Shown here one piece after another: positions 5,218 to 55,053 of a stretch of 64,000 nt of DNA. This DNA comes from Microthrixaceae bacterium (GTDB taxonomy: Bacteria; Actinomycetota; Acidimicrobiia; Acidimicrobiales; VFJN01), in NCBI GenBank assembly GCA_052390255.1, contig JBQTHC010000039.1, positions 16,084-80,083 on the forward strand. Direction: 5' to 3'. Position 1 is the first letter of the stretch; every line of letters begins with the position of its first letter. The position numbers and the translations under genes were made by a program. Below the pieces are notes generated by a model. The model was not told the DNA's origin, searched no databases, and was given only the letters and a program-made list of their open reading frames with translations.

Positions 5218-5271
5218 CCCCGAAATCGTGGGGCGTTTCGTTCTGGTCTTCCGAACGAAGCGACTCAAGAA
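5218..5271 (-). repeat. Long-hairpin intergenic repeat, family 2, copy 1 (sense on minus strand)
   Basis: The minus-strand sequence is TTCTTGAGTCGCTTCGTTCGGAAGACCAGAACGAAACGCCCCACGA. It starts 10 nt after the MFS stop. It is about 80% identical to the copies at 27570 and 43268. Confidence 0.8.
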
Positions 5272-6506
5272 CGCGTGGGGGTCAGGTGGCGGTCGTCGCC
5301 GAACCGGCCGGCAAGCTCTGCGACGACCAGGGTCGACGCGAGCGCGCCGCCGATCACGAACGTCGTCCCCGTGCCGACCGCGCCATAGATGCCTGCGACC
5401 GCGAGCGGTCCGACGGTCTGACCGGCGCGAGCTGCACCCACCCACAGCGCCACCACCGCGCCGCGCTGCGAGGCAGGTGCGGCGCCGGACACGACGTCTT
5501 GCAGGGTTGGGATGAACAGACCCTCGCCCACGCCGTAGAGGAGCGCGCCAGCGAGGAGCACGGGGAGCGTGTGCGACACGCCGATGATGACGAACGCGAC
5601 GGTGAACAGAGATGCCGCACCGACGAGGATCGCCACCGCGCCGAAGCGGGCACGAACGCGCCCGAGCCGCAGCGCCGAGACCGTCGAGGTCAGCGCGGGC
5701 GCGGCGATCACGAGCCCGCGCAAGCCCGCGGTCAGCCCGAACTCGCGCTCGAGGTGGACCGGCAGCGCGGTGAGGAACAGGCCGAAGATCAGCAGGAAGA
5801 TCACGAACCCGATCGAGATCGACCCGACCACGTCACGATGGCGCGCCGCCACGCGCGCGCCGCCGAGCTGCGATCGCAACGTGGCGCTTCCGTCGGGACG
5901 TGCGGGGTCGAGCCGCCGCCAGATCAGGAGCGCCGTGGCGAGACCGATCGCATACGGCAGGAATGACAGGCGCCACCCGCCGATCTCGGTGAGCAGGCCA
6001 CCGATCGGTGGGAACACGGCCAACGACACGGTCAGCACCGCGGCGTTCTGGCCGACGAGACGGGCGCGCTCGATGCCGTCCCAGTGATCACCGATCAGCA
6101 CGACCGCGAGGTTGATCAGTCCGGCGGACCCGATCCCCTGCAGGAGCCGCAGCACGAGCAGCGCCTCGAAGGTGGGCGCGAGCCCCGACAGCAGACCGAA
6201 CACGCCGAACGCGATGAGGCACGGCGTGAGAACCGCACGGCGTCCGTGCCGGTCCGCGAGCACGCCGATCACCGGCGCCATCACGATCCCTGGGAGCGTC
6301 CCCGCCGACACGAACAGCCCGGCGCGCGAGTCGGGCTGGTCGAACGCCGTGAGGATGTCGGGGATCGCCGGGCCGATGAGGGTGTTGGCGAGGATGCCCG
6401 TGACCGTGATCGAGAAGATCAGGGGTAACGGGGGCCGGACGGACCCGAGGACGGCGACCGGTCCGCGAGCCTCGAGCGATGACGGCGGGGGTTGGGGCTC
6501 GCTCAC
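5265..6506 (-). CDS. MFS transporter
   Basis: The 413-aa protein has about 12 hydrophobic segments and the MFS loop motif 'GVLADRHGRR'. GTG start. Confidence 0.8.
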   Translation of the reverse strand: MSEPQPPPSSLEARGPVAVLGSVRPPLPLIFSITVTGILANTLIGPAIPDILTAFDQPDSRAGLFVSAGTLPGIVMAPVIGVLADRHGRRAVLTPCLIAFGVFGLLSGLAPTFEALLVLRLLQGIGSAGLINLAVVLIGDHWDGIERARLVGQNAAVLTVSLAVFPPIGGLLTEIGGWRLSFLPYAIGLATALLIWRRLDPARPDGSATLRSQLGGARVAARHRDVVGSISIGFVIFLLIFGLFLTALPVHLEREFGLTAGLRGLVIAAPALTSTVSALRLGRVRARFGAVAILVGAASLFTVAFVIIGVSHTLPVLLAGALLYGVGEGLFIPTLQDVVSGAAPASQRGAVVALWVGAARAGQTVGPLAVAGIYGAVGTGTTFVIGGALASTLVVAELAGRFGDDRHLTPTRS

Positions 6507-13603: not shown

Positions 13604-13680
13604 TGGTGGGGGCGGCGAGGCTCGAACTCGCGACACTTCGCTTAAAAGGCGACCGCTCTAACCAGCTGAGCTACACCCCC
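13604..13680 (-). tRNA. tRNA-Lys (anticodon TTT), CCA encoded
   Basis: Hand-folded as a cloverleaf. Acceptor GGGGGTG/CGCCCCC, D arm GCTC-AGCTGGTTA-GAGC, anticodon loop CTTTTAA, T arm GCGAG-TTCGAGC-CTCGC, discriminator A, then CCA. One G-A mismatch at 27:43. Confidence 0.85.
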
Positions 13681-13759
13681 GCTGCAACATAACGCCGACA
13701 CGACGCCAACCGTTGAGGCGGGTCGGCGTTGCGGCCAGCACCGGCGTCCGCGGACTCGG

Positions 13760-14197
13760 TCAGTCGAGCTCGACGGTGCGCCACTTGACGTTCTCGGCCT
13801 CGAGGATCTCCGGCAGGACACCGAGAGATGTCTCGTTCGACAGCAGCATCGTCGCGTCGAGCACGAGCCCGGTTGCCACGGCTTCGAGGTTCAGGAGGTT
13901 GAGTCGAGGGTGCCGCTCGGACAGCTCGGCCATGACCGGAACCGTTGCTCGTGGGTCGGGTAGGCCGATGCTCTCGGGCAGCGCCAGCAGGCTACGAATC
14001 GCGGTGGCCTGGTGCGCGGCATCGAGACCGAGGAACGGACCCGAGAGGTGTCCGCCGGCTCCGCCGACGGCGGCGCGGCAGGCTCGGTAGTACCAGTAGG
14101 TCGTGGTGTGGCGCTCACCGAGCCGGCCGAGACCGACGAGGAGCTCCTCGATCAGCAGCCGGTCATCGAGGACGACGTCGGGGAGTGGCTTCGCCAC
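13760..14197 (-). CDS. PIN-like domain protein, putative toxin of a type II toxin-antitoxin pair
   Basis: GTG start directly abuts the antitoxin stop (TAGGTG). The N-terminal 'VVLDDRLLIEELL' and the later 'LEAVATGLVLDATMLLSNE' resemble PIN acidic motifs. The assignment is tentative. Confidence 0.5.
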   Translation of the reverse strand: MAKPLPDVVLDDRLLIEELLVGLGRLGERHTTTYWYYRACRAAVGGAGGHLSGPFLGLDAAHQATAIRSLLALPESIGLPDPRATVPVMAELSERHPRLNLLNLEAVATGLVLDATMLLSNETSLGVLPEILEAENVKWRTVELD

Positions 14198-14437
14198 CTA
14201 CTGATCGGCCAGGTCCGGGTCTTCGATCGCAGCGAGGCCGGCGTCGTAGTGGTCCCGGAGCACGCGGCGCAGCTCGCGTCGAGCGGCCTGGATGCCGCCA
14301 GGAACGATCAGCGCGGCATCTCCGAGATCGACGATCCCGACCTCGCCACCGCCTTCGATGCCCCACCGGTGGCGGAGCTCAGCAGGCAGGTTGGTCTGAC
14401 CACGATGCGACACCTTGGCAGTGGAGGTTCCGGACAT
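14198..14437 (-). CDS. AbrB/MazE/SpoVT-family antitoxin
   Basis: ATG at 14437. 'AKVSHRGQTNLPAELRHRWGIEGGGEVGIVDLGDAALIVP' is a SpoVT-AbrB swapped-hairpin motif. Confidence 0.75.
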   Translation of the reverse strand: MSGTSTAKVSHRGQTNLPAELRHRWGIEGGGEVGIVDLGDAALIVPGGIQAARRELRRVLRDHYDAGLAAIEDPDLADQ

Positions 14438-14443
14438 CGCCGC

Positions 14444-14449
14444 ATTGTA
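14444..14449 (-). promoter_or_regulatory. -10-like hexamer TACAAT 6 nt upstream of the antitoxin ATG (leaderless transcript predicted)
   Basis: The minus strand reads TTGTCGTTGTCGTTCCGATACAATGCGGCGATG. There is no Shine-Dalgarno sequence. A tandem TTGTCG TTGTCG lies just upstream. Confidence 0.35.
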
Positions 14450-14538
14450 TCGGAACGACAACGACAAGGCGCGGGCTCCGAGGACCCACACGGTCGGGCT
14501 TCGTGGCAATGTCTGGCCGCAGCCGTGAGGGAGGGTCG

Positions 14539-15651
14539 ATGAACCAGGAGCCATCGGACCCACAGGCTCCGCAGGCGGTGTCGCTCGACCACCCGTGGTT
14601 CCGGCGCGTGATGGTCGTCGCAGCGGTCGCAGCCGCCGTCAGCGCGGGCGGGGTCGGACTCATCCGGTGGCTCGACGAGCCCGACCGTCGAGGCACGGCG
14701 TCGACCACGACGCTCCCGAGCAGCACCCTGCTGACCACGACCACCACCGCACCGACCACGACGGCACCCGAGGTGATCCCCGACACGCCCATCGACATCG
14801 GGGCCCTCCCGCCGACCCGCAGCGCACCGCCGTCGCAGGCAGTGGCCGTGACCTCCGACGGTCGGCTGGTCGTGATCGACACCGCGACGGGTGCCGAACG
14901 GCGAGAGCTCGCACGCGCTGCCGACCCACGCGTGCCCTACGACGAAGTCGGTCCGAACGTGATCGACGGCGTCACCGTGTCGCCCGACGGCGCCGCCGTG
15001 TGGTTCAGCACCTGCTGCGAGCCTGCCGGCGGCTCGCTCTTTCGCGTCGCCTTCGACGGGTCTGCGCCCGAGGAGCGCCTGTTCGACGCCTACGACCCCA
15101 CGATGTCGGCGTCGACCCGGTACGTCGCCGGAGTCACCAGCCCGGGGGTGATCGTGCACGACCTCGTCGGCGACTCGGGCCGGGTGTGGTGGGACGACCG
15201 GCGTTCGGGCGACTACCAGGAGGTCGCGTGGTCGCTCGACGGGGCGCACATCGCCGTGCGCGTCGGCCTGGAGGGCGAGCTGCTCCTCCTGGACACGCGC
15301 CACTTCGCGTTCACCGAGGCCGAACCGTCGTTCACCAGCCCGCTCGAGCCGCGCACGGTCGACGGCACGGGTTGGTTGCAACCCTTGTTCAGCCGGGACG
15401 GCACGTTGGTCGCCGCCCACGGCGCCGACGGCACGGGATGGACGCGTCGCACGATCGACTGGACGAGCGGCGCCACCACCTCGGAGGTGCCGCTGCCGAG
15501 CAAGCCGCTCAGCCAGACCTACGACGCCACCGGCGAGTGGCTGGTGACCACGCTCGAGGACCCGGGCGACGCGGGTGGCCACGTGCGTTGGGAGGGACCT
15601 GGGGGCAAGACCGGCACGATCCCGGGGACGTTCCGGCTCGTCGCCTGGTAG
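14539..15651 (+). CDS. Membrane-anchored beta-propeller (TolB/PD40-like) protein
   Basis: ATG at 14539 is preceded by GAGGGAGGG. The protein has an N-terminal TM helix 'VMVVAAVAAAVSAGGVGLI', a Thr-rich linker, and repeated 'SPDG/SLDG/SRDG' blades. Confidence 0.6.
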   Translation: MNQEPSDPQAPQAVSLDHPWFRRVMVVAAVAAAVSAGGVGLIRWLDEPDRRGTASTTTLPSSTLLTTTTTAPTTTAPEVIPDTPIDIGALPPTRSAPPSQAVAVTSDGRLVVIDTATGAERRELARAADPRVPYDEVGPNVIDGVTVSPDGAAVWFSTCCEPAGGSLFRVAFDGSAPEERLFDAYDPTMSASTRYVAGVTSPGVIVHDLVGDSGRVWWDDRRSGDYQEVAWSLDGAHIAVRVGLEGELLLLDTRHFAFTEAEPSFTSPLEPRTVDGTGWLQPLFSRDGTLVAAHGADGTGWTRRTIDWTSGATTSEVPLPSKPLSQTYDATGEWLVTTLEDPGDAGGHVRWEGPGGKTGTIPGTFRLVAW

Positions 15652-15694
15652 CGCCGGGACTGCCGGAGACGAGGGCTTGTACGCTCGACGGGCC

Positions 15695-16093
15695 ATGAGC
15701 ACACCCTCCGAGGACGACGGACTCACGGTCCTCGGCCACACGGTTCGCCATCCGATCGACGCGCTCGAGTGCTTCGACGCGCCGGCACACGTCACGAGGG
15801 TGCGCTTCACCACCGACGAGGTGATGTCGTTGTGCCCGGTCACCGGGCAGCCCGACATCTCCTCGCTCGCGCTCGAGTACCGACCCGACCGGCACTGCAT
15901 CGAGTCGAAGTCGCTCAAGCTGTACCTCTGGCGATTCCGCGACCGAGCCGCGTTCTGCGAGGCGCTCGCGGCCGAGATCGCCGAGGAGGTGGTGCGTGCG
16001 GCCGATCCGCACGAGGTGACCGTCACGCTCACGCAACAGCCCCGCGGCGGCATCGTGATCGAGGCCACCGCCACGCGCGCCAAGGGCTCGTGA
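15695..16093 (+). CDS. queF: NADPH-dependent 7-cyano-7-deazaguanine (preQ0) reductase, type I
   Basis: Catalytic Cys in 'SLCPVTGQPD'. The QueF motif 'ESKSLKLYLW' is present. It aligns from the N-terminus with Bacillus-type QueF. Confidence 0.85.
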   Translation: MSTPSEDDGLTVLGHTVRHPIDALECFDAPAHVTRVRFTTDEVMSLCPVTGQPDISSLALEYRPDRHCIESKSLKLYLWRFRDRAAFCEALAAEIAEEVVRAADPHEVTVTLTQQPRGGIVIEATATRAKGS

Positions 16094-16770
16094 GCCTCGT
16101 CGTCACCACCGTTTCCGGTGGCCTCGACTCGGTGACGCTCGCGCACTCGCTCGCGGCCGACGGCGCCGCGCTCGTCGCGCTGTCGTTCGACTACGGGCAG
16201 CGCCACGCGAAGGAGCTCGAGCTCGCCGCGCGGTGTGCCGACCGGCTCGGCGCCGAGCACCACGTGGTCGACCTCCGGTCGGTCGGCGCGCTGCTCACCG
16301 GCTCGGCGCTCACGGATCGCAACGTGGATGTTCCGGAAGGCCACTACACGGACGCGTCGATGGCCTCGACGGTCGTGGCGAACCGCAACGCGATCATGCT
16401 GTCGGTCGCGATCGGCGTGGCCGTGGCTCGGGGTGCCGACGCTGTCGCCACCGCGGTCCACGCCGGCGACCACACCGTGTATCCCGACTGCCGGCCCGAG
16501 TTCATCGCCGCGATCGAGCACGAGGCGCTCGTCGCGAACGAGGGCTTCATCCAGGACGGGTTCCGGGTGCTCGCACCGTTCCTGCTCGTGTCGAAGGCCG
16601 AGATCGTGCGACGCGGTGCCGCGCTCGACGTGCCGTTCGCAGAGACGTGGTCGTGCTACGTCGGCGGCGCGACGCACTGCGGGCGGTGCGGCACTTGCGT
16701 CGAGCGCCGCGAGGCGTTCGAGCTGGCCGGCGTGTCGGATCCCACCGCGTACGCCCAGGTGTCGGCATGA
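16090..16770 (+). CDS. queC: 7-cyano-7-deazaguanine synthase
   Basis: GTG overlaps the queF stop (GTGA). PP-loop 'SGGLDS'. C-terminal zinc cluster 'CYVGGATHCGRCGTC'. Confidence 0.9.
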   Translation: MSLVVTTVSGGLDSVTLAHSLAADGAALVALSFDYGQRHAKELELAARCADRLGAEHHVVDLRSVGALLTGSALTDRNVDVPEGHYTDASMASTVVANRNAIMLSVAIGVAVARGADAVATAVHAGDHTVYPDCRPEFIAAIEHEALVANEGFIQDGFRVLAPFLLVSKAEIVRRGAALDVPFAETWSCYVGGATHCGRCGTCVERREAFELAGVSDPTAYAQVSA

Positions 16771-17141
16771 GCTTCACGATCGCGAAGCGCTTCGAGTTCT
16801 CGGCGTCGCACGTGCTCACCGCCGTACCCGAGGACCACAAGTGCCGGAGGCTGCACGGTCACAACTACGAGGTGGAGGTGATCTGCGCGGCCGACGCGCT
16901 CGACGCCCGCGGCATGGTGGTGGACTACTTCGACCTCGATCCGGTGAAGCGCTTCATCGACGACACGATCGACCACCGGCACCTCAACGACGTGCTCCCC
17001 GGCGAGCCCACCGCAGAGGTGCTCGCCCGCTGGTTGTTCGAGTCCCTCACCAACGTGCTCGACGCTGCGGTCGCCGAGCGCGTCGTGGCGGTCCGGGTCC
17101 ACGAGACGCCGAAGACATGGGCCGAGTACCGGCCGAGCTGA
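16767..17141 (+). CDS. queD: 6-carboxy-5,6,7,8-tetrahydropterin synthase
   Basis: ATGA overlap with queC. 'FEFSASHVL' and 'RLHGHNYEVEV' are the His-triad motifs. Confidence 0.9.
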   Translation: MSFTIAKRFEFSASHVLTAVPEDHKCRRLHGHNYEVEVICAADALDARGMVVDYFDLDPVKRFIDDTIDHRHLNDVLPGEPTAEVLARWLFESLTNVLDAAVAERVVAVRVHETPKTWAEYRPS

Positions 17142-17842
17142 CCGCGGACGAGGGCGACGCGCTCGTCGTCGCGGAGGTGTTCGGTCCTACCTTCCAAGGC
17201 GAAGGCCCGTCGATCGGCAGGCGCGCCGGGTTCGTGCGACTCGGTCGCTGCAACCTGGACTGCGCGTGGTGCGATACGCCGTACACCTGGGACTGGCAGC
17301 GCTACGACCCCGCAATCGAGCTGCGGCGCATGGCGGTGGCCGACGTGCTCTCGAAGCTCGACGCGATGGCCCCGGAGATCGTGGTCATCACTGGTGGCGA
17401 GCCGCTGCTGCAGCAACGCCGCCTCGTGCCGCTGCTGCAGGGCTGCGCGGAGCGGGACTGGCCCGTCGAGATCGAGACGAACGGCACGCTCGCTCCCGCG
17501 CCCGAGGTGACGTCGCTCGTGCATCAGTGGAACGTGTCACCCAAGCTCGCCAACAGCGGCGTCGCCAGCGATGTGCGCCTCCGACCTGACGCGCTCGCCG
17601 CGCTCTCAGCGACCGGCGCAGCGGTGTTCAAGTTCGTGGTGACGCAAGCAGCCGAGCTCGACGAGGTCGCGGAGATCGTCGACGCACACGGCCTCGAGCG
17701 CGTGTGGGTCATGCCCGAGGGCACCGACGCCGCGACGTTGACCGAGCGCACACGTTCGCTCGCCGAGCCGGTTCTCGCCCGCGGCTGGAACCTCACACCG
17801 CGCCTGCACGTGCTGCTCTGGGGTGACGAGCGCGGCCGCTGA
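17117..17842 (+). CDS. queE: 7-carboxy-7-deazaguanine synthase (radical SAM)
   Basis: 'FQGEGPSIGRRAGFVRLGRCNLDCAWCDT' contains the CxxxCxxC motif. The start is approximate; the ATG at 17117 overlaps queD by 25 nt. Confidence 0.85.
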   Translation: MGRVPAELTADEGDALVVAEVFGPTFQGEGPSIGRRAGFVRLGRCNLDCAWCDTPYTWDWQRYDPAIELRRMAVADVLSKLDAMAPEIVVITGGEPLLQQRRLVPLLQGCAERDWPVEIETNGTLAPAPEVTSLVHQWNVSPKLANSGVASDVRLRPDALAALSATGAAVFKFVVTQAAELDEVAEIVDAHGLERVWVMPEGTDAATLTERTRSLAEPVLARGWNLTPRLHVLLWGDERGR

Positions 17843-17859
17843 GGCCGATCCGCTGGTCC

Positions 17860-18339
17860 TCAGCTGCTCGATGTGTCGGAGGAAGAACGCGCCTTCGCTG
17901 CCGCGCCGAGCGCGGCGAGCGAGCTCGGGAGCTCCGTGCGACCGACCTGGCGAGCCCGGATCCGAGCCAGCAGCACCCGACGCCAGAAGGTCGCTGGGTG
18001 CAGCTCCATCGAGACCGCCACCCGGCTCCCCGCCGGATCCGGGTTCACGGTCCACGCCCACAGCGCGTACGACGGGTTCCCGTCGTCGGTGCACGAGCGG
18101 TAGTGGAAGCGCCCCTCACCGGGGTCGACGGCAGTGATGCGCGACCTGCTGTTCCACCGCTGGCCCAGCGCCCGCACCTCCACCACCCACTCCGCGCCGG
18201 GCTCGAGCGCCGGCAGCGGCTCGACGACCCTGACGATGGCGTCGTTCCACTCCGGGAGGTGCGCGATGTCGGTCAGGGTGCCGAAGACGGCACCCGGGCT
18301 GGCGTCCAGAACCGCCTCGGCAGTCTTCGTGATGGTCAT
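17860..18339 (-). CDS. SRPBCC (START/polyketide-cyclase-like) family protein
   Basis: ATG at 18339 is preceded by GAGGGGAG. 'VFGTLTDIAHLPEWNDAI' is typical of SRPBCC proteins. Confidence 0.75.
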   Translation of the reverse strand: MTITKTAEAVLDASPGAVFGTLTDIAHLPEWNDAIVRVVEPLPALEPGAEWVVEVRALGQRWNSRSRITAVDPGEGRFHYRSCTDDGNPSYALWAWTVNPDPAGSRVAVSMELHPATFWRRVLLARIRARQVGRTELPSSLAALGAAAKARSSSDTSSS

Positions 18340-19190: not shown

Positions 19191-19967
19191 ATGGCTGACA
19201 CGATCCCGGTCGACCCAGAGGCGCTGCGCGCCGACGTCCGTGAGAAGTACCGCGAGGTCGCGCTGCAGCCTGGCGGGACGTTCCACTTCCACACCGGTCG
19301 TCCGCTCGCCGCGCTGCTCGGCTATGCCGACGCGATCGTCGACTCGCTGCCCGACCGTGCCGTCGAGTCCTTCGCCGGCGTCGGGAACCCCTTCTCGCTC
19401 CGGCCACTCGGGGCCGGCGAGCACGTCGTCGACCTCGGCTCGGGCGGCGGGTTCGACTGCTTCGTCGCCGCGGCGAGCGTCGGTTCCGAAGGCCACGTGA
19501 TCGGCGTGGACATGACGCCCGAGATGCTCGCCAAGTCGCGCGCGACCGCGGAGCTGCTGGGCTTGGGCAACGTGGAGTTCCGTGAGGGCATCCTCGAGGA
19601 GCTCCCCGTCGAGGACGGGTGGGCCGACGTGGTGATCTCGAACGGTGTGATCAACCTCTGTGCCGACAAGCCCGCGGTGTTCGCGCAGGCCTTCCGGGCG
19701 CTGCGGCCGGGTGGGATCATCCAGTTCGCCGACATCGCGAACGGCAAGCCCGTGCCCGAGGCCGCGGTGTGCGAGATCGACCTGTGGACCGGCTGCATCG
19801 CCGGCGGCCTCCCCACCGCCGAATGGGAGGCGGTCATCGAAGAAGCCGGCTTCGTCGACCTGTCGGTGGGGATGCCCGTCGACGCCTTCGGCGGCTCCGC
19901 TGGTGAGCCCAACGCGCGCGCCTACGACGTGTCCGCCCACGTGTTCCTCGCCCGCAAGCCGGGCTGA
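19191..19967 (+). CDS. ArsM/AS3MT-like class I SAM-dependent methyltransferase
   Basis: SAM motif 'VVDLGSGGGFD' plus 'VVISNGVINL...KPAVFAQAFRALRPGG' and 'WTGCIAGG'. Of the four canonical ArsM cysteine contexts, only the 'GC(I/V)AG' one is recognisable. Confidence 0.7.
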   Translation: MADTIPVDPEALRADVREKYREVALQPGGTFHFHTGRPLAALLGYADAIVDSLPDRAVESFAGVGNPFSLRPLGAGEHVVDLGSGGGFDCFVAAASVGSEGHVIGVDMTPEMLAKSRATAELLGLGNVEFREGILEELPVEDGWADVVISNGVINLCADKPAVFAQAFRALRPGGIIQFADIANGKPVPEAAVCEIDLWTGCIAGGLPTAEWEAVIEEAGFVDLSVGMPVDAFGGSAGEPNARAYDVSAHVFLARKPG

Positions 19968-20344: not shown

Positions 20345-21616
20345 ATGACCGCGCTCGCCTCGCGACCCCGCTCGGGGACGCAGCTCGGGCTCCAGGCGAA
20401 CCTCGCGCAGTTCGCGCTGCTCGTCGGCGTCAACGCGCTCGTCGGCGGGATGCTCGGACAGGAGCGCACCGTCCTCCCGCTGCTCGCGACCGAGGAGTTC
20501 GGGCTCACGGCGTTCACCGCCACGCTCACGTTCATCGCGGCCTTCGGTGTGGTGAAGGCCGCGACGAACTTCTTCGCGGGCACGCTGTCTGACCGATACG
20601 GCCGCAAGCCGGTCCTCGTCGCCGGGTGGCTGATCGCCCTCCCGATCCCACCCCTGCTGATGTGGGCGCCCTCGTGGAGCTGGGTGATCGCCGCCAACGC
20701 GCTCCTCGGCGTCAACCAAGGTCTCACGTGGTCGACGACGGTGATCATGAAGATCGACCTCGTCGGTCCTGCGCGCCGGGGGTTCGCGATGGGCCTCAAC
20801 GAGGCCGCTGGATACGGTGCGGTCGCCGCCACCGCACTCGCGACGGGCTTCATCGCGGACCGCTTCGGCCTTCGGCCAGAACCGTTCTTCCTCGGCCTCG
20901 CGTTCGCGGGCCTCGGCGTCGGCCTGTCCACGCTCTTCGTGCGCGAGACGCATGGACACGTGGCGCTCGAGGCGCACGAGCACCAGGCGCGGCACGTCGA
21001 CGACCACGATCGGCTGACGACGGCCGACGTCTTCCGCCTCACGAGCTTCCGCGAGCGTGCGCTGTCGTCGTGCAGCCAGGCTGGGCTCGTCAACAACCTC
21101 AACGACGGCCTCGCGTGGGGCCTTTTCCCGTTGCTGTTCGCGGCCGCGGGGCTGAGCGTGGCGCGCATCGGCGTCCTCGCCGCGCTGTACCCAGCGGTGT
21201 GGGGGGTGGGGCAGCTCCTCACCGGGGCGCTGTCCGACCGTGTCGGGCGCAAGCAGCTCATCGTGGCGGGCATGCTCACGCAGGCGGCCGCGTTGGCGTG
21301 GATCGCGGGCACGACCGGGTTCGGCCCGTGGGCCCTGGGCGCAGCTGCCCTCGGGGCCGGAACTGCGATGGTGTACCCCACGCTCCTCGCGGCGATCGGA
21401 GATGTGGCGCACCCCAGCTGGCGCGCGCGATCGGTGGGCGTCTACCGCCTCTGGCGCGACGGCGGGTTCGCCGTTGGCGCGCTGATGGCCGGCCTCCTCG
21501 CCGACGCGCTCTCCATCCGCGCCGCGATCTGGGTCGTCGCTGCGCTCACGGCCGCCTCAGGCCTCGTCGTCCTGCTGCGCATGTACGAGACCCACCCCAC
21601 CAACCAACGTCTGTGA
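20345..21616 (+). CDS. MFS transporter
   Basis: The 423-aa protein has about 12 TM segments and MFS loops 'GTLSDRYGRKP' and 'GALSDRVGRKQ'. Its last 7 codons and stop lie inside palindromic repeat copy A. Confidence 0.85.
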   Translation: MTALASRPRSGTQLGLQANLAQFALLVGVNALVGGMLGQERTVLPLLATEEFGLTAFTATLTFIAAFGVVKAATNFFAGTLSDRYGRKPVLVAGWLIALPIPPLLMWAPSWSWVIAANALLGVNQGLTWSTTVIMKIDLVGPARRGFAMGLNEAAGYGAVAATALATGFIADRFGLRPEPFFLGLAFAGLGVGLSTLFVRETHGHVALEAHEHQARHVDDHDRLTTADVFRLTSFRERALSSCSQAGLVNNLNDGLAWGLFPLLFAAAGLSVARIGVLAALYPAVWGVGQLLTGALSDRVGRKQLIVAGMLTQAAALAWIAGTTGFGPWALGAAALGAGTAMVYPTLLAAIGDVAHPSWRARSVGVYRLWRDGGFAVGALMAGLLADALSIRAAIWVVAALTAASGLVVLLRMYETHPTNQRL

Positions 21617-21668
21617 ACCCTGGCGTCCGCATGGCGGCCGTGGCGGTTCACAGACGTTGGTTGGTGGG
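21596..21668. repeat. Palindromic intergenic repeat, TCTGTG...CACAGA superfamily, copy A
   Basis: 24-bp perfect arms CCCACCAACCAACGTCTGTGAACC / GGTTCACAGACGTTGGTTGGTGGG with a 25-nt loop. It sits exactly between the convergent MFS and kinase genes. Confidence 0.9.
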
Positions 21669-24392: not shown

Positions 24393-24405
24393 CTGCAGTT
24401 GCGGT

Positions 24406-25485
24406 TCACCGCGCTGGGTTGGCGACACGACCCGCGAACCGACCAGCCGGACGCACCGCGCGATACGCATCGACCACCGGCTCGAGCTCCGCCGGAGCCG
24501 AGCCATGAAGGATCACGCCATCCGCGCCGGCGTCGAACTGGTCGAGGACGCGGGCCGCACACATCGCGGCATCACCGACCGCGGCCGGGAGCCACTCCGG
24601 TGGGATCAGCCCGCTGATGTGGTCGAGCTCGGACAGCGTCGCCTTCGCATCGATCGCGCCGGCGATCGACGCCACGACCTCGTCCGCACGGAAGCGCTCG
24701 AGGGGGGCGGGGTCCCACCCGTTCATCGCCACGAGCGCGTCGCCGTAGGCCTGTAGGTAGGTCGCCATCCGCCCGGTGACGCCGCGGAGACGGCGCTCCT
24801 CATCGGGCTCGTGCAGCGTGGCGAGCACCGACCACACGCGCACCGCCGCCGGATCCCGGCCCGCCTCGTCGGCTCCGGCGCGCACGGCCGCGACGCAGCG
24901 CTCGAGCGCCTCGTCGCTCACGAAGGTGTGCAGGATCACGCCGTCGGCCACGCGACCCGCCCACCGCATCGTGTTGAAGCCGAGGCACGCGGCCATCACG
25001 GGGATGTCCTCATCGAAGCTCGGGTCCAGGACGAGCAGCGGATAGCGACCCGCGGGGCCGTCGTGTCCAACGATCATCTCGCCCTTCCAGAGGCGGCGGT
25101 AGACGCCGACGGCGTCTTCCATCTGCGCCATCGTGATGCGCGGGATCCCCATGATGTCGGTGAGCGGTGCGATGCCGCGGCCGATCCCGAGCGCGAAGCG
25201 CCCACGCGTGAGGCGATGCATCGTGGTGGCCCAAGCCGCGGTGACGAGCGGGTGGCGCGTCGGCGTGTTCGTGACGCCGGTGGCGATCCCCACCTCCTCG
25301 CTCACCGCCGCAGCGGCACCCGTGAGCGTCGCGGCCTCCTTCACGTTGAAGCGCTCCGACAAGAACACGGAGCCCAGACCGATGCGCTCCGCGTCGCGCA
25401 CCTCATCGAGCAGCACGCGTGGATCGTCGACGTGCCCCGCAAGCCCGTAGCACCCGAGCTCGACCATCCGATCCTGTGCGTGCAT
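24406..25485 (-). CDS. LLM-class (luciferase-like) flavin/F420-dependent oxidoreductase
   Basis: 'GLGSVFLSERFNVKEAATL', 'RFALGIGRG' and a TIM-barrel LLM pattern. The start could instead be the Met 6 codons downstream. Confidence 0.8.
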   Translation of the reverse strand: MHAQDRMVELGCYGLAGHVDDPRVLLDEVRDAERIGLGSVFLSERFNVKEAATLTGAAAAVSEEVGIATGVTNTPTRHPLVTAAWATTMHRLTRGRFALGIGRGIAPLTDIMGIPRITMAQMEDAVGVYRRLWKGEMIVGHDGPAGRYPLLVLDPSFDEDIPVMAACLGFNTMRWAGRVADGVILHTFVSDEALERCVAAVRAGADEAGRDPAAVRVWSVLATLHEPDEERRLRGVTGRMATYLQAYGDALVAMNGWDPAPLERFRADEVVASIAGAIDAKATLSELDHISGLIPPEWLPAAVGDAAMCAARVLDQFDAGADGVILHGSAPAELEPVVDAYRAVRPAGRFAGRVANPAR

Positions 25486-25501: not shown

Positions 25502-25548
25502 ATCTGTGGGCGCTGCGGCACGCGATGCGTGTCCGGACGCCCACAGAT
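25502..25548. repeat. Palindromic intergenic repeat, TCTGTG...CACAGA superfamily, copy alpha
   Basis: ATCTGTGGGCG / CGCCCACAGAT (11 bp, perfect) with an inner GCACGC-GAT-GCGTGT hairpin. It lies in the divergent LLM/P450 intergenic region. Confidence 0.85.
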
Positions 25549-27569: not shown

Positions 27570-27618
27570 GTTCTTGGGGCGCTTCGTACCGAAGACCGGA
27601 ACGCATCGCCCCAAGAAC
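27570..27618 (+). repeat. Long-hairpin intergenic repeat, family 2, copy 2
   Basis: GTTCTTGGGGCG-CTTCGTACCGAAGACCGGAACGCAT-CGCCCCAAGAAC. The outer 12-bp arms are perfect. It starts 11 nt after the SDR stop, between convergent genes. Confidence 0.85.
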
Positions 27619-29108: not shown

Positions 29109-30044
29109 TCAGACGGCGGCGAGCAGCGGCACGGGTGCGTCGACAGGCAGCTGCTCGGCGCGGCGCGAGGCGAAGCGTCGGCCTGCCTTGCCGATGCGGT
29201 CGATGCGCTTGACGAGCGCGGCGCGCGCCGCGTCGGCCTCGGGCGACAGGCCCTCGATCGCCTCGACGCCCCAGTGGCGTAGAACGACCGGCACGAGGAT
29301 GAGGTCGTGGTGGGTGGCGAAGTCGTAGATGCCGGCCTTCGCGATCGCCTTGGCGTGGGCGTCGTAGTCGACGATGCCGGTGCCCGGCATCTCGAACGTG
29401 CGCACCTGGCGCTCGATGGCGAGCACCATCCCAGACGGATCGACCTCGAGCGCCGCGCTCACGAGGTCGCGGTAGAAGAGGTGGTGGCGGTTCTCGTCGC
29501 TCGCCACCTTCTTCATCACCTCGTAGCCCGCCTTGTCATCGAGCAGCTTGCCGGTGTTGTGGTGCGCGATCCGGGTGGCGAGCTCCTGGAGCGCGACGTA
29601 GGCGAACCCATCGTGCGGGGTCTCCGGCTCGGGGACCTCGCCGCACTCGACCTGTGCCATGCGCGCCCGTTCGAGGGCCACGGGATCGATGGCGCGCGTG
29701 ACGGTGAGGTAGTCGCGGATCACGATCGAGTGGCGGCCCTCCTCCGCGGTCCAGCGACGTGCCCATGCACCCCACGCCGAGTCACGGCCGAACATCGCCT
29801 CGATCGTCCGGAAGTAGTACGGCAGGTTGTCCTCCGTGAGGAGGTTGACGAAGAGGGCGCTGCGGACCTCATCGGAGAGCGTCACGTCGTCGGCCGACCA
29901 CTCGTAGCCCGGCTCGAAGTCGCGCCCCCGGCTCCACGGGACGAGATCGTGGGGGAACCACTCCTTCGCAGACGACAGGTGCCGCTCGAGGAGGCGCTCT
30001 GCAGTGGGCTCGAGGTCGGCGAGGAGCGCTTGAGGGGAGAGCAT
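29109..30044 (-). CDS. Acyl-ACP desaturase (soluble di-iron, DesA-like)
   Basis: 'LTEDNLPYYF', 'WTAEEGRHS' (EExxH), 'ELATRIAHHNT' and 'SDENRHHLFY' are di-iron ligand motifs. Confidence 0.85.
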   Translation of the reverse strand: MLSPQALLADLEPTAERLLERHLSSAKEWFPHDLVPWSRGRDFEPGYEWSADDVTLSDEVRSALFVNLLTEDNLPYYFRTIEAMFGRDSAWGAWARRWTAEEGRHSIVIRDYLTVTRAIDPVALERARMAQVECGEVPEPETPHDGFAYVALQELATRIAHHNTGKLLDDKAGYEVMKKVASDENRHHLFYRDLVSAALEVDPSGMVLAIERQVRTFEMPGTGIVDYDAHAKAIAKAGIYDFATHHDLILVPVVLRHWGVEAIEGLSPEADAARAALVKRIDRIGKAGRRFASRRAEQLPVDAPVPLLAAV

Positions 30045-37024: not shown

Positions 37025-37083
37025 CGTCTGTGAACCCCGGCGGCCGCATGGCGGATGTGGGGGTTCACAGACGTTGTTTGGTG
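37025..37083. repeat. Palindromic intergenic repeat, TCTGTG...CACAGA superfamily, copy B
   Basis: CGTCTGTGAACCCC / GGGGTTCACAGACG (14 bp, perfect) plus right flank TTGTTTGGTG. The loop shares CCGCATGGCGG with copy A. It lies between the convergent ligase and dut genes. Confidence 0.9.
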
Positions 37084-38169: not shown

Positions 38170-39219
38170 GTGGACCACAGCCCCCCGACGGACCGCCCAA
38201 GGCGCCAAGAGCAGGAGCCGGCTTCCACAGAGGTCACCGAGGTCGGTCCCGGCATCCTGCGCTCGCAGCTGCCGATCTCGCTGCCGGGCCTCGGCCACGT
38301 CAACTGCTACTTCCTGCAGGACGAGCGCGGCGTCGCCATCGTCGACCCTGGTCTGCCCGGCCCACCGTCGTGGCGTGCGCTCGTCGACCGCCTGAAGCAA
38401 GCCGGCTACAAGCCGAAGCACGTCCACACGGTCATCGTCACCCACTCGCACCCCGACCACTTCGGCGGCGCGGGCCGCATGCGCGACACCTACGGCGCCG
38501 AGGTGATCACCCATCGGAGCTTCCGGACGTGGTTCGACCCCGTCGAGGACGAGGTGGCCGACGACGAAGGCACACCTGCACCGTGGGGTCGCACGATGCC
38601 GTGGCGCAACGACGCCACGTTCCGCCCGCCGATCTCACGCCGATTGAAGTTCGGCTTCTACCGCACAGCGCTGCGCCGGTTCGTGCGCACGCCGGCGCCC
38701 ACGCGGCGCGTCGACGACGCGGAGGTGATCCAGCTCGCCGGTCGCGAGTGGGTGTCGCTGCACACACCGGGTCACACCAACGACCACCTCTGCCTGTTCG
38801 ATCCGGCCGAGGGCGTCGTCCTGTCGGGTGACCACGTCCTGCCCACGATCACGCCGCACATCTCCGGCCTCGTCGCCGGCGCCGACCCGCTCACGGCGTT
38901 CTTCGAGTCGCTCGACAAGGTGGCGGCGCTCGAAGGCGTCGGCCTCGTGCTCCCCGCCCACGGCCACCCGTTCGTCGACCTCGCCGGTCGCGCCAAGGAG
39001 ATCCACGACCATCACCAGGACCGTCTCGAGACGCTGCGCGCCGCGGCGGGCGAGCTCGGTTCGGCGAGCGTCGAGGAGCTGTCGCAACGGCTCTTCAAGC
39101 AGCGCTCGTGGGGGCAGATGGCCGAGAGCGAGACCTACGCGCACCTCGAGCACCTGCGCGCGATCGGCGAAGCCGAGAGCCGCGACGAGGACGGCACGCT
39201 CCACTACCACCTGGTCTGA
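38170..39219 (+). CDS. MBL-fold metallo-hydrolase
   Basis: 'VIVTHSHPDHFGGAG' is the HxHxDH motif. 'LHTPGHTNDH' is also present. Confidence 0.8.
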   Translation: MDHSPPTDRPRRQEQEPASTEVTEVGPGILRSQLPISLPGLGHVNCYFLQDERGVAIVDPGLPGPPSWRALVDRLKQAGYKPKHVHTVIVTHSHPDHFGGAGRMRDTYGAEVITHRSFRTWFDPVEDEVADDEGTPAPWGRTMPWRNDATFRPPISRRLKFGFYRTALRRFVRTPAPTRRVDDAEVIQLAGREWVSLHTPGHTNDHLCLFDPAEGVVLSGDHVLPTITPHISGLVAGADPLTAFFESLDKVAALEGVGLVLPAHGHPFVDLAGRAKEIHDHHQDRLETLRAAAGELGSASVEELSQRLFKQRSWGQMAESETYAHLEHLRAIGEAESRDEDGTLHYHLV

Positions 39220-39232
39220 CGGGCTGACTGGT

Positions 39233-39277
39233 TCTGTGGGCGCCACAGCACGGTATGCGTGCCCTCGCGCCCACAGA
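39233..39277. repeat. Palindromic intergenic repeat, TCTGTG...CACAGA superfamily, copy beta
   Basis: TCTGTGGGCGC / GCGCCCACAGA (11 bp, perfect) with an inner GCACG-GTATG-CGTGC hairpin. It lies between the convergent MBL and thioesterase genes. Confidence 0.85.
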
Positions 39278-42665: not shown

Positions 42666-43274
42666 ATGGGCCGCTTCGCGGAGCTGCTCGCGCACGACGG
42701 CGTGGAGGAGGAGGTGACGCTGCGTTCCACGTTCGGCTTCATGGCGTTCCACGGCGGCAACCTCGAGGAGGGCACCGACGGGATCGCTGCCGCGGCGGCC
42801 GAGGCGAGCGGCGCCTCGCTGTATGCGGTGCGTCAGCCGGTCGACCTGCGCTGGCACATCCCGTCGGTCGAGGTCACGCCAGAGGACTCCCCGGCTCTTG
42901 CCGGCTTCCTCGAGCACGTCGAGGTCGCGGTGGCCATTCACGGCTACGGCCGCGAGGGGATGTGGACGACGCTGCTGCTCGGCGGCGCGAACCGACCGTT
43001 GGCGGCGCACGTCGCTGGTCACCTGCGCGCGGGGATGCCGACCTACGTCGTGATCGACGACATCGAGGCCGTGCCGCGGGAGCTGCGCGGCGTTCACCGT
43101 GCCAACCCGGTCAACCGCTGCGCCGGCGGTGGCGTCCAGCTCGAGCTGCCGCCGCGGGTTCGATCGCGGGTGCCGATGTGGGCGGATCTGCCCGAGGGCG
43201 CTCCGATCCCGCACGGCGAGGATCTGGTCGAGGCCCTCGCGGCCGCGGCCCGCGCCTGGCCCCCGCCTTCTTGA
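42666..43274 (+). CDS. Poly-gamma-glutamate hydrolase family protein (YjqB/UPF0714-like)
   Basis: 'FMAFHGGNLEEGTD', 'VAIHGYGR' and 'NPVNRCAGGGVQLELP'. The stop codon lies inside family-2 repeat copy 3. Confidence 0.65.
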   Translation: MGRFAELLAHDGVEEEVTLRSTFGFMAFHGGNLEEGTDGIAAAAAEASGASLYAVRQPVDLRWHIPSVEVTPEDSPALAGFLEHVEVAVAIHGYGREGMWTTLLLGGANRPLAAHVAGHLRAGMPTYVVIDDIEAVPRELRGVHRANPVNRCAGGGVQLELPPRVRSRVPMWADLPEGAPIPHGEDLVEALAAAARAWPPPS

Positions 43275-43314
43275 GGCGCTTCGTTCGCAAGACCCGAACA
43301 GAACGCCCCGAGAA
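43268..43314 (+). repeat. Long-hairpin intergenic repeat, family 2, copy 3
   Basis: TTCTTGAGGCGCTTCGTTCGCAAGACCCGAACAGAACGCCCCGAGAA. It lies between convergent genes. The upstream gene's TGA is the TTGA of the repeat. Confidence 0.85.
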
Positions 43315-53358: not shown

Positions 53359-54071
53359 AGCCGCTGCTCGCCCATGCCCGGCTCGAGCTGACGCTGCTCG
53401 CACGCAACGGCGAGTCGCTCCTCCTCACGATCGGCATCCCGATCCTGCTGCTCGTGTTCTTCGCCAACGTCGACGTGCTGCCGATCGACGGCGACCCGAT
53501 CACGTTCCTCGCGCCGGGCGTGCTCGCCCTGGCGGTGCTATCGACCTCCCTCGTCAACCTCGCCATCGCCACCGGCTTCGAGCGCGAGTACGGGGTGCTG
53601 AAGCGGCTCGGCGCGACCCCGCTCGGTCGCCCGCGCCTGCTCGCCGCGAAGACCGCAGCGATCCTCGTGGTGGAGGCGGCGCAGATCGGTGTCCTGTGGG
53701 TGATCGCGCTCGCGCTCGGCTGGGATCCGAGCCCGCGCCTCGGCTTCGTCGCCGCGGTGACGCTCGGCACGATCGCGTGCGCTGGCCTGGCCCTGTGCCT
53801 CGCGGGAGCGCTCTCCGCCCTCGTGACGCTCGCCGCGGCGAACGGTCTCTACCTCGTCCTCCTGCTCCTGTCGGGCATGGTGATCCCCCTCACGGAGCTC
53901 CCAGGCCCCGTCCGCGCGCTCGCGCGCGCCCTGCCCAGCGGCGCGCTCGCGGACGCGGTCCGCGGCACGCTCAGCGTGAGCGGGACCGTGCCGGCGCGGG
54001 CCTGGGTCGTCCTGGGCGTGTGGGCGGTCGTCGCCCCAACCGCCGCGACACGCCTCTTCCGCTGGGAGTAG
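53355..54071 (+). CDS. ABC-2 family transporter permease
   Basis: GTGA overlap with the ATPase gene. 238-aa protein with about 6 TM segments. Confidence 0.75.
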   Translation: MKPLLAHARLELTLLARNGESLLLTIGIPILLLVFFANVDVLPIDGDPITFLAPGVLALAVLSTSLVNLAIATGFEREYGVLKRLGATPLGRPRLLAAKTAAILVVEAAQIGVLWVIALALGWDPSPRLGFVAAVTLGTIACAGLALCLAGALSALVTLAAANGLYLVLLLLSGMVIPLTELPGPVRALARALPSGALADAVRGTLSVSGTVPARAWVVLGVWAVVAPTAATRLFRWE

Positions 54072-54073
54072 CG

Positions 54074-54134
54074 ACGTCTGTGAACCCTCACGATCGCCAT
54101 CCGGACGTGAGGGTTCACAGACGTTGGTTGGTGG
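54074..54134. repeat. Palindromic intergenic repeat, TCTGTG...CACAGA superfamily, copy C
   Basis: ACGTCTGTGAACCCTCACG / CGTGAGGGTTCACAGACGT (19 bp, perfect) plus right flank TGGTTGGTGG. It lies between the convergent ABC permease and ctaG genes. Confidence 0.9.
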
Positions 54135-54144
54135 AGCAGGGGGG

Positions 54145-55053
54145 TCAGGGGTGCGGCTGCTCGACGGTGGGCGGCGGGTGCGCCTCGAAGGCCTGCTGCA
54201 CCGTGTCGAACGTCAGCACCTCGCGCGCGGCTGCAGCCCGCGCGCGGTCCTCGCGCTCGTTGCGAGCCGACCACGAGAAGAACAGCCAGGTGATGACGAC
54301 CCACAGGTAGGTGCCGGCACCGAGCTTCATGATCACGCCGGCCACCTGCTGGTCGGTGGTGACGGAGATGTCGAACATGCGCTGCGGGATGTCGTACACG
54401 CGGTACACCGCACCGTGGGCGAAGATCAGCCAGGCGCCGGGAACGGTCGGCACGATCGACGTGACGAACAGGTACAACATCTGAGCGGGCACCGAGATGC
54501 GCAGCTCGGGGAGTGGGCCGCACACGGGGATCCACAGCAGCAGCGCCGCGGCGACGATCGTGGTGTGGACGGCGTAGTGGAACAGCCCGTTGGACGACGC
54601 GGTGTTGACGACGAACTGCGCGTGCAGCAGCAGCGCGAGTGCGTTGAACAGGACCGCCGCGGGCACCGGGCGAGCCAGCTTGTGGACCCAACGGTCGACT
54701 CGCCCGTTGCCGAGCACGAGCCGGGCGAGCCACTCGGGAGTGGCCATCAGCATCACCGCTGGCATCACGAGCGTGAGGATCGTGTGCTGGATCATGTGGA
54801 CGAGGTAGAGGTACTCCTCGCCGACGTCGTGCATCGGCCAGTCAGCCGCCACCCAGAGGAGCAGCACGCCGAACACGAACCAGCGCCGCTGCGAACGGGT
54901 GACCGCGGGCGTGCCCGCCGGCACGACCTTCGGGCCGATCACCCTGGCCGCGTAGACGTAGAGCACCACGAGCCCCACGACCAGCAGCCACACCTCCGGG
55001 TGCGGCACCCAGCGCCAGAAGTCGACGCGCTCGGAAGCCGCGAGCTCCCTCAT
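54145..55053 (-). CDS. ctaG: Cytochrome c oxidase assembly factor CtaG (caa3-type, membrane)
   Basis: 'DWPMHDVGEEYLYLVHMIQHTILTLVMP' and 'LLWIPVCGP' are typical of Bacillus-type CtaG. Confidence 0.8.
   Translation of the reverse strand: MRELAASERVDFWRWVPHPEVWLLVVGLVVLYVYAARVIGPKVVPAGTPAVTRSQRRWFVFGVLLLWVAADWPMHDVGEEYLYLVHMIQHTILTLVMPAVMLMATPEWLARLVLGNGRVDRWVHKLARPVPAAVLFNALALLLHAQFVVNTASSNGLFHYAVHTTIVAAALLLWIPVCGPLPELRISVPAQMLYLFVTSIVPTVPGAWLIFAHGAVYRVYDIPQRMFDISVTTDQQVAGVIMKLGAGTYLWVVITWLFFSWSARNEREDRARAAAAREVLTFDTVQQAFEAHPPPTVEQPHP

Follow-up and report, generated by a model that had tools for sequence, protein, structure and literature searches.

In Mycobacterium, a palindromic motif named the 'Tuberculosis Rho-independent terminator' (TRIT) is present in 147 copies in the M. 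tuberculosis genome; it can be read in both directions, is accompanied by a stop codon at about −8, and was reported to be restricted to Mycobacterium (PMC3152330). A terminator function of TRIT is doubtful in its own right (PMC3993855; bioRxiv 10.1101/2022.06.01.494293). Repetitive extragenic palindromic (REP) sequences form another group of such elements. Their GTAG- and CGTC-tagged superfamilies were surveyed by Di Nocera et al. 2013, who noted that GTAG REPs often supply stop codons; Actinobacteria are not mentioned at all in that survey (PMC3733652). Gene ends are also remodeled by miniature transposable elements with inverted repeats (MITEs), such as Correia/NEMIS of Neisseria, RPE of Rickettsia, and the QMITEs of Coxiella (PMC5896051). 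Here, we analyzed a 64,000-nucleotide stretch of contig JBQTHC010000039.1 from a Microthrixaceae bacterium (positions 16,084 to 80,083; hereafter, the window) and revealed a family of 45-base palindromic repeats that is located almost only on gene 3′ ends. This family is previously undescribed, as no prior description of it was found in the literature on the element sequence or on palindromic repeats of Acidimicrobiia and Microthrix. The elements are probably lineage-specific, repeated imperfect palindromes of Acidimicrobiia (Microthrixaceae and relatives), similar to REP and TRIT and turning over between genomes, which would act as hairpins at mRNA 3′ ends rather than as intrinsic terminators.

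The initial annotation of the window had listed five elements with the architecture TCTGTG...CACAGA. Counting the pattern TCTGTG-N15-45-CACAGA in the window gave five matches, compared with 0.07 expected, and none of 100 shuffles reached five (0/100). The five elements were found where they had been placed; the annotation had missed that each is TCTGTG-N33-CACAGA and exactly 45 nt long. A covariance model, R1, was then built from 27 diverse copies and run on the window with filters off. A minus-strand copy at 5226-5270 was recovered by this model alone (score 14.9 bits, E about 0.1); it was subsequently confirmed by eye and, in our own alignment, was identical to the copy at 43269 at 38 of 45 positions. 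In total, the window holds eight members in three subfamilies (AACC, three; GGCG, two; TCTTGG, three), which are listed below with their coordinates, strand, and neighboring genes, the latter named according to Pfam where a protein family is given.

Copy A, 21596..21668, no strand assigned: AACC subfamily, core 21610-21654, outer arms CCCACCAACCAACG / CGTTGGTTGGTGGG; between a rightward MFS gene, whose stop codon is at 21614-21616, and a leftward APH gene.
Copy B, 37027..37083, no strand assigned: AACC subfamily, core 37027-37071, right flank only (CGTTGTTTGGTG); between a rightward ATP-dependent DNA ligase gene (stop 37019) and a leftward dUTPase gene (stop 37085).
Copy C, 54077..54134, no strand assigned: AACC subfamily, core 54077-54121, right flank CGTTGGTTGGTGG; between a rightward ABC-2 permease gene (stop 54071) and a leftward CtaG gene (stop 54145).
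Copy alpha, 25503..25547, no strand assigned: GGCG subfamily (TCTGTGGGCG...CGCCCACAGA); inside an 86-nt divergent region between a minus-strand luciferase-like monooxygenase (LLM) gene and a plus-strand P450 gene.
Copy beta, 39233..39277, no strand assigned: GGCG subfamily; between the stops of a rightward MBL hydrolase gene (39219) and a leftward acyl-ACP thioesterase gene (39292).
Third subfamily copy 1, 27572..27616, plus strand: TCTTGGGGCG-N25-CGCCCCAAGA, 45 nt; at the convergent junction 27559/27633.
Third subfamily copy 2, 43269..43313, plus strand: TCTTGAGGCG-N25-CGCCCCGAGA, 45 nt; at the convergent junction 43274/43323.
Third subfamily copy 3, 5226..5270, minus strand: downstream of the minus-strand gene 5265-6506.
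Degenerate half-copy of the initial annotation, 24399..24422, no strand assigned: GGTTCACCGCGCTGGGTTGG; a possible remnant without statistical support.

The last of these was not supported. Around position 24403, it matches the right arm and flank at 15 of 20 positions, a match of which ~0.2 are expected per window, and it was recovered by neither a hidden Markov model nor the covariance model.

The unit of the family is a 45-nt core, TCT(G/T)(T/G)G ... C(A/C)(C/A)AGA, that can be folded into a stem of ~21 bp with a loop of 3–5 nt, and several subfamilies coexist in one genome. Copies A, B, and C have the arms TCTGTGAACC/GGTTCACAGA and the right flank CGTTGGTTGGTG in common, A and B share CCGCATGGCGG, and alpha and beta share the arms TCTGTGGGCG/CGCCCACAGA. 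The arms, flank, and loop core had thus been grouped correctly at the outset, except for one substitution in copy B. The third subfamily has the layout TCTTGrGGCG-N25-CGCCCyrAGA and is also 45 nt long. Among 83 pattern matches from high-GC loci and the window, the length distribution showed a sharp peak at 45 nt (62 matches). In the AACC subfamily, optional outer arms lengthen the palindrome to 73–79 nt. In copy A, the palindrome spans 73 nt (21596-21668) and the 24-nt outer arms, CCCACCAACCAACGTCTGTGAACC / GGTTCACAGACGTTGGTTGGTGGG, are perfect; copies B and C carry the outer arm on the right side only. The outer arm, (cccca)CCAACCAACG, was found on 56 of 92 sides; when it is absent, the boundary lies no more than a few nucleotides from the core. 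At L067:7015-7045 (L numbers denote loci from other genomes), the right outer arm of one copy runs on into a (GGTT)n microsatellite, cgttggttggttggttggttggttg, which suggests slippage in the flank.

When the AACC copies were oriented, they gave an asymmetric consensus, TCTGTGAACC nCCACGTCCGC [ATG/CAT/ATA] GCGGCCGCCgG (or CCGGCCATCCG) GGTTCACAGA. Because the copies share conserved asymmetric mismatches, the element is an imperfect palindrome. The loop triplet occurs in both orientations, independently of the arms, and the left- and right-arm variants are present in every combination. The core hairpins had folding energies of −23.5 to −35.5 kcal/mol, compared with −14.6 ± 4.5 kcal/mol for random 45-mers of the window. 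Across the 27 diverse copies, 85.7% of cells pair (67.5% in shuffles), double changes occur at 17 of the 21 pairs, and the covariation score was 0.443 versus 0.141, with slid controls at or below 0.15. From one subfamily or lineage to another, the sequence of the interior is free, but self-complementarity and length are retained.

Gene contexts were determined with a gene caller based on GC content at third codon positions (GC3), by which 41 of 46 AACC-type copies could be classified. Of these, 18 lay in convergent, 22 in tandem, and 1 in divergent contexts. The 60 gene 3′ ends that face an element were distributed as follows.

Stop codon is the TGA inside TCTGTGA (element position 5-7): 21 gene ends.
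Stop codon 2-28 nt before the core: 35 gene ends.
Stop codon farther away: 4 gene ends.

Fifty-six of the 60 facing ends therefore lie within 28 nt of an element or overlap it, and about a third of the adjacent genes terminate at the internal TGA of the element. Since the stops are this close or internal, the elements occupy essentially all of the intergenic space and often replace the native C-terminus and stop codon. All 21 proteins ending at the internal TGA, among them Lgt, an MFS transporter, an alpha/beta hydrolase, and an SRPBCC protein, have a terminal Leu, and in 10 the tail is NQRL. In the window, copies A, B, beta, and C were confirmed to lie between convergent stop codons and alpha between the divergent starts of the LLM and P450 genes. 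The statement that copy A supplies the tail of the MFS protein (PTNQRL*) also held, the stop being the TGA of TCTGTGA. Two of the three third-subfamily copies give a neighbor its TGA as well: the TGA of TCTTGA terminates gene 42666-43274 in copy 2 and the minus-strand gene 5265-6506 in copy 3. The flanking genes are ordinary according to Pfam (MFS, APH, methyltransferase, luciferase-like monooxygenase, P450, ATP-dependent ligase, dUTPase, MBL hydrolase, acyl-ACP thioesterase, ABC-2 permease, and CtaG).

The ABC-2 permease beside copy C matched a protein of an NCBI MAG (metagenome-assembled genome) labeled Microthrixaceae bacterium with 100% identity; exact-protein searches with the MFS gene, with genes from both ends of the window, and with P0001 gave no match. 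The distribution of the family was evaluated by scanning one genome per species for TCTGTGAACC-N10-40-GGTTCACAGA, and at least 91 blocks matched. The MAG Betzabe_MAG020 contained at least 47 sites in 34 blocks of 8 kb, with the same consensus as the window copies. Other Acidimicrobiia MAGs among the matches listed carried 45-nt versions with unrelated interiors. Only 3 copies were found in other related contigs totaling about 246 kb, and searches of IMG/VR (phage) and PLSDB (plasmid) returned no copy.

A comparison of orthologous intergenic regions in relatives, which had been proposed as a check, showed that occupancy varies. The window is syntenic with contig JBMOLI010000013.1 of Betzabe_MAG020 at 72–87% nucleotide identity, and the copies L001:1868, L001:6998, and L005:5129 have no counterpart at the syntenic window sites. 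Window gene 19191-19967 has an orthologue that stops 5 nt before L005:7290, the counterpart of copy A, and the SHOCT and MFS genes are absent there. By position, the counterpart of copy C is L027:2706-2750; it is followed by a hydrolase gene and a near-identical second copy, L027:3565, both of which are absent from the window. At the beta site, a 45-nt element is present in the window, L096, and L092. None was found in ~55 orthologous loci that are more distant; in several of these, the stop codons abut. The MBL in L096 is 97% identical, and the element there is a perfect palindrome. In these three loci, the beta-site copies still begin and end with TCTGTG/CACAGA, measure 45 nt, and pair, and their interior has diverged. 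Moreover, near-identical neighboring copies with shared private variants were observed in L027 (2706/3565), L069 (5818/5911), and L084 (3831/4294). Copies are thus gained, lost, or replaced between related genomes and duplicated locally.

How might such an element act on a transcript? Once transcribed, it would form a hairpin at the mRNA 3′ end. This hairpin would most likely block 3′→5′ exonucleases, so that the 3′ end would be defined and stabilized after Rho-dependent or run-on termination, and it would also separate convergent transcripts. The element itself would be, at best, a weak, factor-aided terminator. Hairpins without a U-tract have been proposed to serve as RNA stabilizers or 3′-end definers (PMC3993855).

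A competing explanation, which was the functional claim of the initial annotation and which we regard as improbable, is that the element is a bidirectional Rho-independent terminator, whose hairpin stops the polymerase arriving from either side and in which CCAACCAACG / CGTTGGTTGG take the part of weak A- and U-tracts in the arms. The element cores have the strong GC-rich hairpin of an intrinsic terminator and lie exactly between convergent stops. The 3′ flank of the AACC subfamily, CGUUGGUUGG, is partly U-rich and mirrored on the other side, and canonical terminators are scarce in the region (1 in 20 kb). In addition, mycobacterial NusG raises termination at suboptimal U-tracts (PMC3993855). 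However, a canonical intrinsic terminator carries a U-tract of 7–9 nt directly after the hairpin, whereas the elements have no T-run, and a consensus terminator scan called none of them. The CGTTGGTTGG flank was rejected as a U-tract: in tandem contexts, it was present only upstream in 9 cases and only downstream in 5, showing no downstream bias, and it is entirely absent from alpha, beta, and the third-subfamily copies. In several tandem pairs, the next start codon lies 2–17 nt past the element, where efficient termination would silence the next gene. Furthermore, recombinant mycobacterial RNA polymerase did not terminate at hairpins lacking a U-tract, even in the presence of NusA and NusG (PMC3993855), and TRIT predictions coincided with only 2–4% of the 3′ ends mapped by Term-seq in M. 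tuberculosis (bioRxiv 10.1101/2022.06.01.494293). Given the missing U-tract, the unbiased flank, the close next starts, and the mycobacterial polymerase and TRIT data, we prefer a 3′-end hairpin over a stand-alone terminator.

Several points weigh against the preferred reading. The role at the RNA level is one that we purely infer, and within it a hairpin protecting or defining the 3′ end appears more likely than true intrinsic termination. The variable stem positions of the AACC subfamily show no positive covariation, with Watson–Crick pairs at or below the independence expectation (for pair 17/29, 14 observed versus 19.2 expected). Together with the shared asymmetric mismatches, this is easier to reconcile with master-element copying or with recognition by a protein than with selection for a perfect RNA helix, and arm-to-arm covariation would also be expected from paired binding sites of a transposase. 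With the stop codon placed in the stem, the hairpin has to be melted by the ribosome as it terminates. Copy alpha, the sole window copy away from gene 3′ ends, lies in a divergent promoter region. The orientation of the element relative to transcription (13 versus 7 in our tally) is not significant. Finally, the DNA covered, ~0.3 Mb from the relative and 64 kb from the source genome, yielded no mobilizing enzyme.

It is also unlikely that the repeats are purely selfish MITEs without a host function, which survive at 3′ ends only because selection purges other insertions. Such elements would account for the variable occupancy of orthologous sites, the local duplicates, the depletion from divergent promoter regions, and the occurrence in few lineages only, since ~246 kb from other related contigs yielded just 3 copies; the conserved mismatches are likewise consistent with copying from a master element. 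However, no target-site duplications were detected: the longest flanking direct repeats were no longer than at random positions, and the L014 and L027:2706 cases were within chance. No solo TCTGTGAACC or GGTTCACAGA ends spaced 0.7–3 kb and no parent insertion sequence (IS) were found in the sampled high-GC loci and the window, and the phage and plasmid collections held no copies. The diverged beta-site copies keep their ends, 45-nt length, and pairing, suggesting that inserted copies are under constraint, and constraint is also suggested by the recurrence of the same architecture in subfamilies with unrelated interiors. A partner transposase, for which a search had been recommended, was not found, as Pfam revealed no transposase, integrase, or recombinase among 20 flanking or element-bounded proteins. 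The label 'REP/MITE-like' chosen in the initial annotation is supported in its first half, as the repeats are REP-like, multi-copy in the relative, biased to 3′ ends, variable in occupancy, and locally duplicated. It is not supported in its second, as no target-site duplications, no solo ends or parent IS in the sampled DNA, and no transposase among the 20 genes were found.

With respect to the route of spread, a process of the single-stranded DNA type that recognizes hairpins and leaves no target duplication (of the REP-associated tyrosine transposase (RAYT) or IS200/IS605 kind), or recombination and gene conversion between copies, would be the most likely; DDE cut-and-paste transposition is less likely. 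The invariant stem foot, fixed length, and conserved mismatches suggest a putative protein partner. A bolder version, to which we assign a low probability, is that the palindromes are recognition sites of a putative hairpin-specific recombinase or transposase in Acidimicrobiia, which would copy the element and through which single genes would be gained and lost at 3′ ends. If true, this would amount to integrase-independent, attC-like gene shuffling on the chromosome of a Gram-positive lineage, with the TCTGTG/CACAGA foot and the 45-nt length as the 'ruler' of the enzyme.

We also consider it very improbable that the palindromes are sites of recombination similar to attC or NIME/dRS3, where single genes come and go as a resident palindrome recombines with one on an incoming gene. 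The window and the syntenic MAG contig have five large differences in gene content, and by our reading elements border three of them: the SHOCT and MFS genes beside copy A, the alpha/beta-hydrolase gene between the near-identical L027 copies, and the tRNA-adjacent island ending at L005:5129. In L084, two copies enclose a glyoxalase-family gene, the arm variants occur in all combinations with a loop triplet that flips independently, and stop codons overlap the element. In many integron cassettes, the stop codon overlaps the attC site. However, the loci were fetched because they hold elements, which biases this association, and the other two of the five indels have no element. The ABC-2 permease/CtaG junction gains 4.5–8 kb in L095 and L094 without border elements, the genes next to the elements are convergent rather than co-oriented, and the 20 scanned proteins include no integrase or recombinase. 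Homologous recombination between repeats of 45–73 bp would also give the same pattern.

A duplex-DNA site for a dimeric regulator or nucleoid protein, in which the hairpin would be irrelevant, is hardly credible: although the ends are invariant, the end-to-end spacing is fixed, alpha lies in a divergent promoter, and TGTGA...TCACA resembles CRP/GlxR half-sites (TGTGA/TCACA), the half-sites are 31 nt apart instead of 6, a misfit for which CRP-like half-sites were rejected, alpha, beta, and the third-subfamily copies lack TGTGA, the interior is palindromic in every lineage despite its free sequence, a feature superfluous for a protein that binds only the ends, and the 56 of 60 facing gene ends within 28 nt point to 3′ ends and not to promoters.

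Further observations were made at the loci described above. The ABC-2 permease/CtaG junction is a hotspot of gene insertion (window 54071-54145, L027:2700-3620, L092:10717-10724, L094:10717-18457, and L095:10717-15292). The gap measures 6 nt in L092 and holds one element in the window, two elements and a hydrolase gene in the Betzabe MAG, and 4.5–8 kb of unrelated genes in L095 and L094. Next to the minus-strand tRNA at 13607-13680, gene content differs entirely between window positions 13683-17897 and L005:158-5192, which makes the segment island-like; in the syntenic MAG, it carries arsenate-reductase-like, MIP, Lgt, cupredoxin, and YibE/F genes with four element copies. At the beta site, a comparison of window 39219-39232 with L096:1812-1820 showed an 8-nt direct duplication, CTGACGGG-CTGACTGG, beside the element, and the right side of beta in the window has 26 extra nucleotides relative to L096. 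The thioesterase gene of L096 appears to run into the element and to end at an internal TGA.

Outside the Acidimicrobiia, a shorter related family of 38–40 nt, ggaTCTGTGAACCCAAAt-N-aTTTGGGTTCACAGAtcc, was observed mostly at gene 3′ ends in the unclassified Actinomycetota MAG P01_B01_bin.17, at the following loci.

P01_B01_bin.17 loci: L007, L021, L028, L049, L052, L059, L061, L064, L065, L071, L076, and L080.

The TCTGTGAACC foot in this MAG indicates that the stem foot is shared beyond the Acidimicrobiia. Matches of the form TCTGTGAACC...GGTTCACAGA in Thermoactinomycetaceae were rejected as cross-phylum homologues. They are 44-nt motifs within conserved CRISPR leaders, ~55 nt upstream of the first GTTTAGTTGTAACCATAGTGGTATTGAAAT repeat; their interiors are non-palindromic, and they lie 100–600 nt from open reading frames (ORFs), so they do not belong to this family. 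The order in these leaders is TCTGTGAACC-N24-GGTTCACAGA, a TATAAT-containing stretch, and then GTTTAGTTGTAACCATAGTGGTATTGAAAT repeats with ~35-nt spacers. In Laceyella sacchari (NZ_SMDD01000001.1, 944-960 kb), one such leader is at L086:2887-3130 and seven further copies are in L086 and L042; L063, L050, L039, and L010 are additional loci. Eight CRISPR leaders with mini-arrays are thereby packed into 16 kb at a spacing of ~1.5 kb with small ORFs between them, which is an unusual arrangement. At L030:36-360, from a Sphaerobacteraceae MAG, three solo GGGTTCACAGAC motifs without a left arm lie within ~340 nt; they probably represent a different local repeat family.

Scanning the window against Rfam at gathering thresholds matched only tRNA and ASdes, with no family at the elements, and E-value scans at copy A and one Laceyella copy gave only generic miRNA-precursor hairpins far below threshold. 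The ASdes match, at 29674-29741 on the plus strand, scored 53.2 bits against a gathering score of 40 and is antisense to the minus-strand ORF 29109-30044. ASdes is a mycobacterial antisense small RNA of desaturase genes.

We compared the family with the described systems, beginning with the most distant. The attC sites of integrons are likewise imperfect palindromes with conserved mismatches at or over a stop codon and with variable neighbors, and AAC...GTT is found in TCTGTGAAC...GTTCACAGA. An attC identity was rejected because the boxes TGTGAAC / GTTCACA do not fit RYYYAAC/GTTRRRY, in which only AAC and GTT agree. The family also differs from attC in its fixed length, in its convergent housekeeping flanks in place of co-oriented cassettes, and in the lack of an integrase among the scanned proteins. 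With the MITEs that remodel gene ends, it shares the features of a small palindromic repeat that overlaps coding sequence, alters C-termini, and can form an RNA hairpin. However, those MITEs have terminal inverted repeats, target-site duplications, and usually a parent IS, whereas the present element is much shorter and neither duplications nor a parent IS were found.

The likeness to REPs and REPINs is more extensive. Both are short imperfect palindromes repeated in one genome at high copy number (here, 8 in the window and at least 47 in the blocks of the syntenic MAG) and located downstream of coding regions, mostly between convergent and tandem genes (here, 18 convergent and 22 tandem contexts, with 1 divergent). 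Both occasionally supply stop codons, have several families per genome, form local doublets, and lack target duplications, and REPs are thought to be mRNA-stabilizing RNA hairpins. In contrast to REPs, the present elements lack an unpaired GTAG at one end of the hairpin, and their only CGTC is that of the AACC subfamily, where it stands at both ends and within the paired stem (aCGTCtgtg). REPs also go with a single-copy RAYT (Y1 transposase) gene, which they usually flank; the 20 proteins scanned here include no transposase. They also exceed the size of REPs, which are 20–40 bp with stems of 8–9 bp, as their core is 45 nt with a stem of ~21 bp and the palindrome reaches 73–79 nt.

TRIT is the closest analogue. 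It belongs to the same phylum and is a multi-copy palindromic hairpin of conserved sequence at gene termini, without a canonical U-tract. TRIT keeps a very narrow position relative to the stop codon and thereby overlaps the end of the coding sequence, and the overlap is similar here, since 21 of the 60 facing ends stop 7 nt into the element. Set against the description of TRIT, the family reported here stands apart by a core fixed at 45 nt, by its several subfamilies and optional outer arms, and by copies documented as present or absent between relatives. We conclude that the family is a further example of the REP/TRIT kind of element and not a new kind of system. Microthrixaceae and related Acidimicrobiia are abundant in wastewater and soil and are known mostly from MAGs. 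For these genomes, model R1 or the pattern TCTGTG-N33-CACAGA offers a searchable marker of gene ends, and the family accounts for recurrent odd C-termini (…NQRL*) and for ORFs that are called across the repeat. Because length and stem foot stay constant across unrelated interiors, a putative protein partner is worth seeking. After TRIT, this is the second independent case of a conserved-sequence hairpin placed on stop codons in Actinobacteria, and it makes the ending or protection of transcripts without canonical terminators in high-GC Actinobacteria testable outside the mycobacteria.

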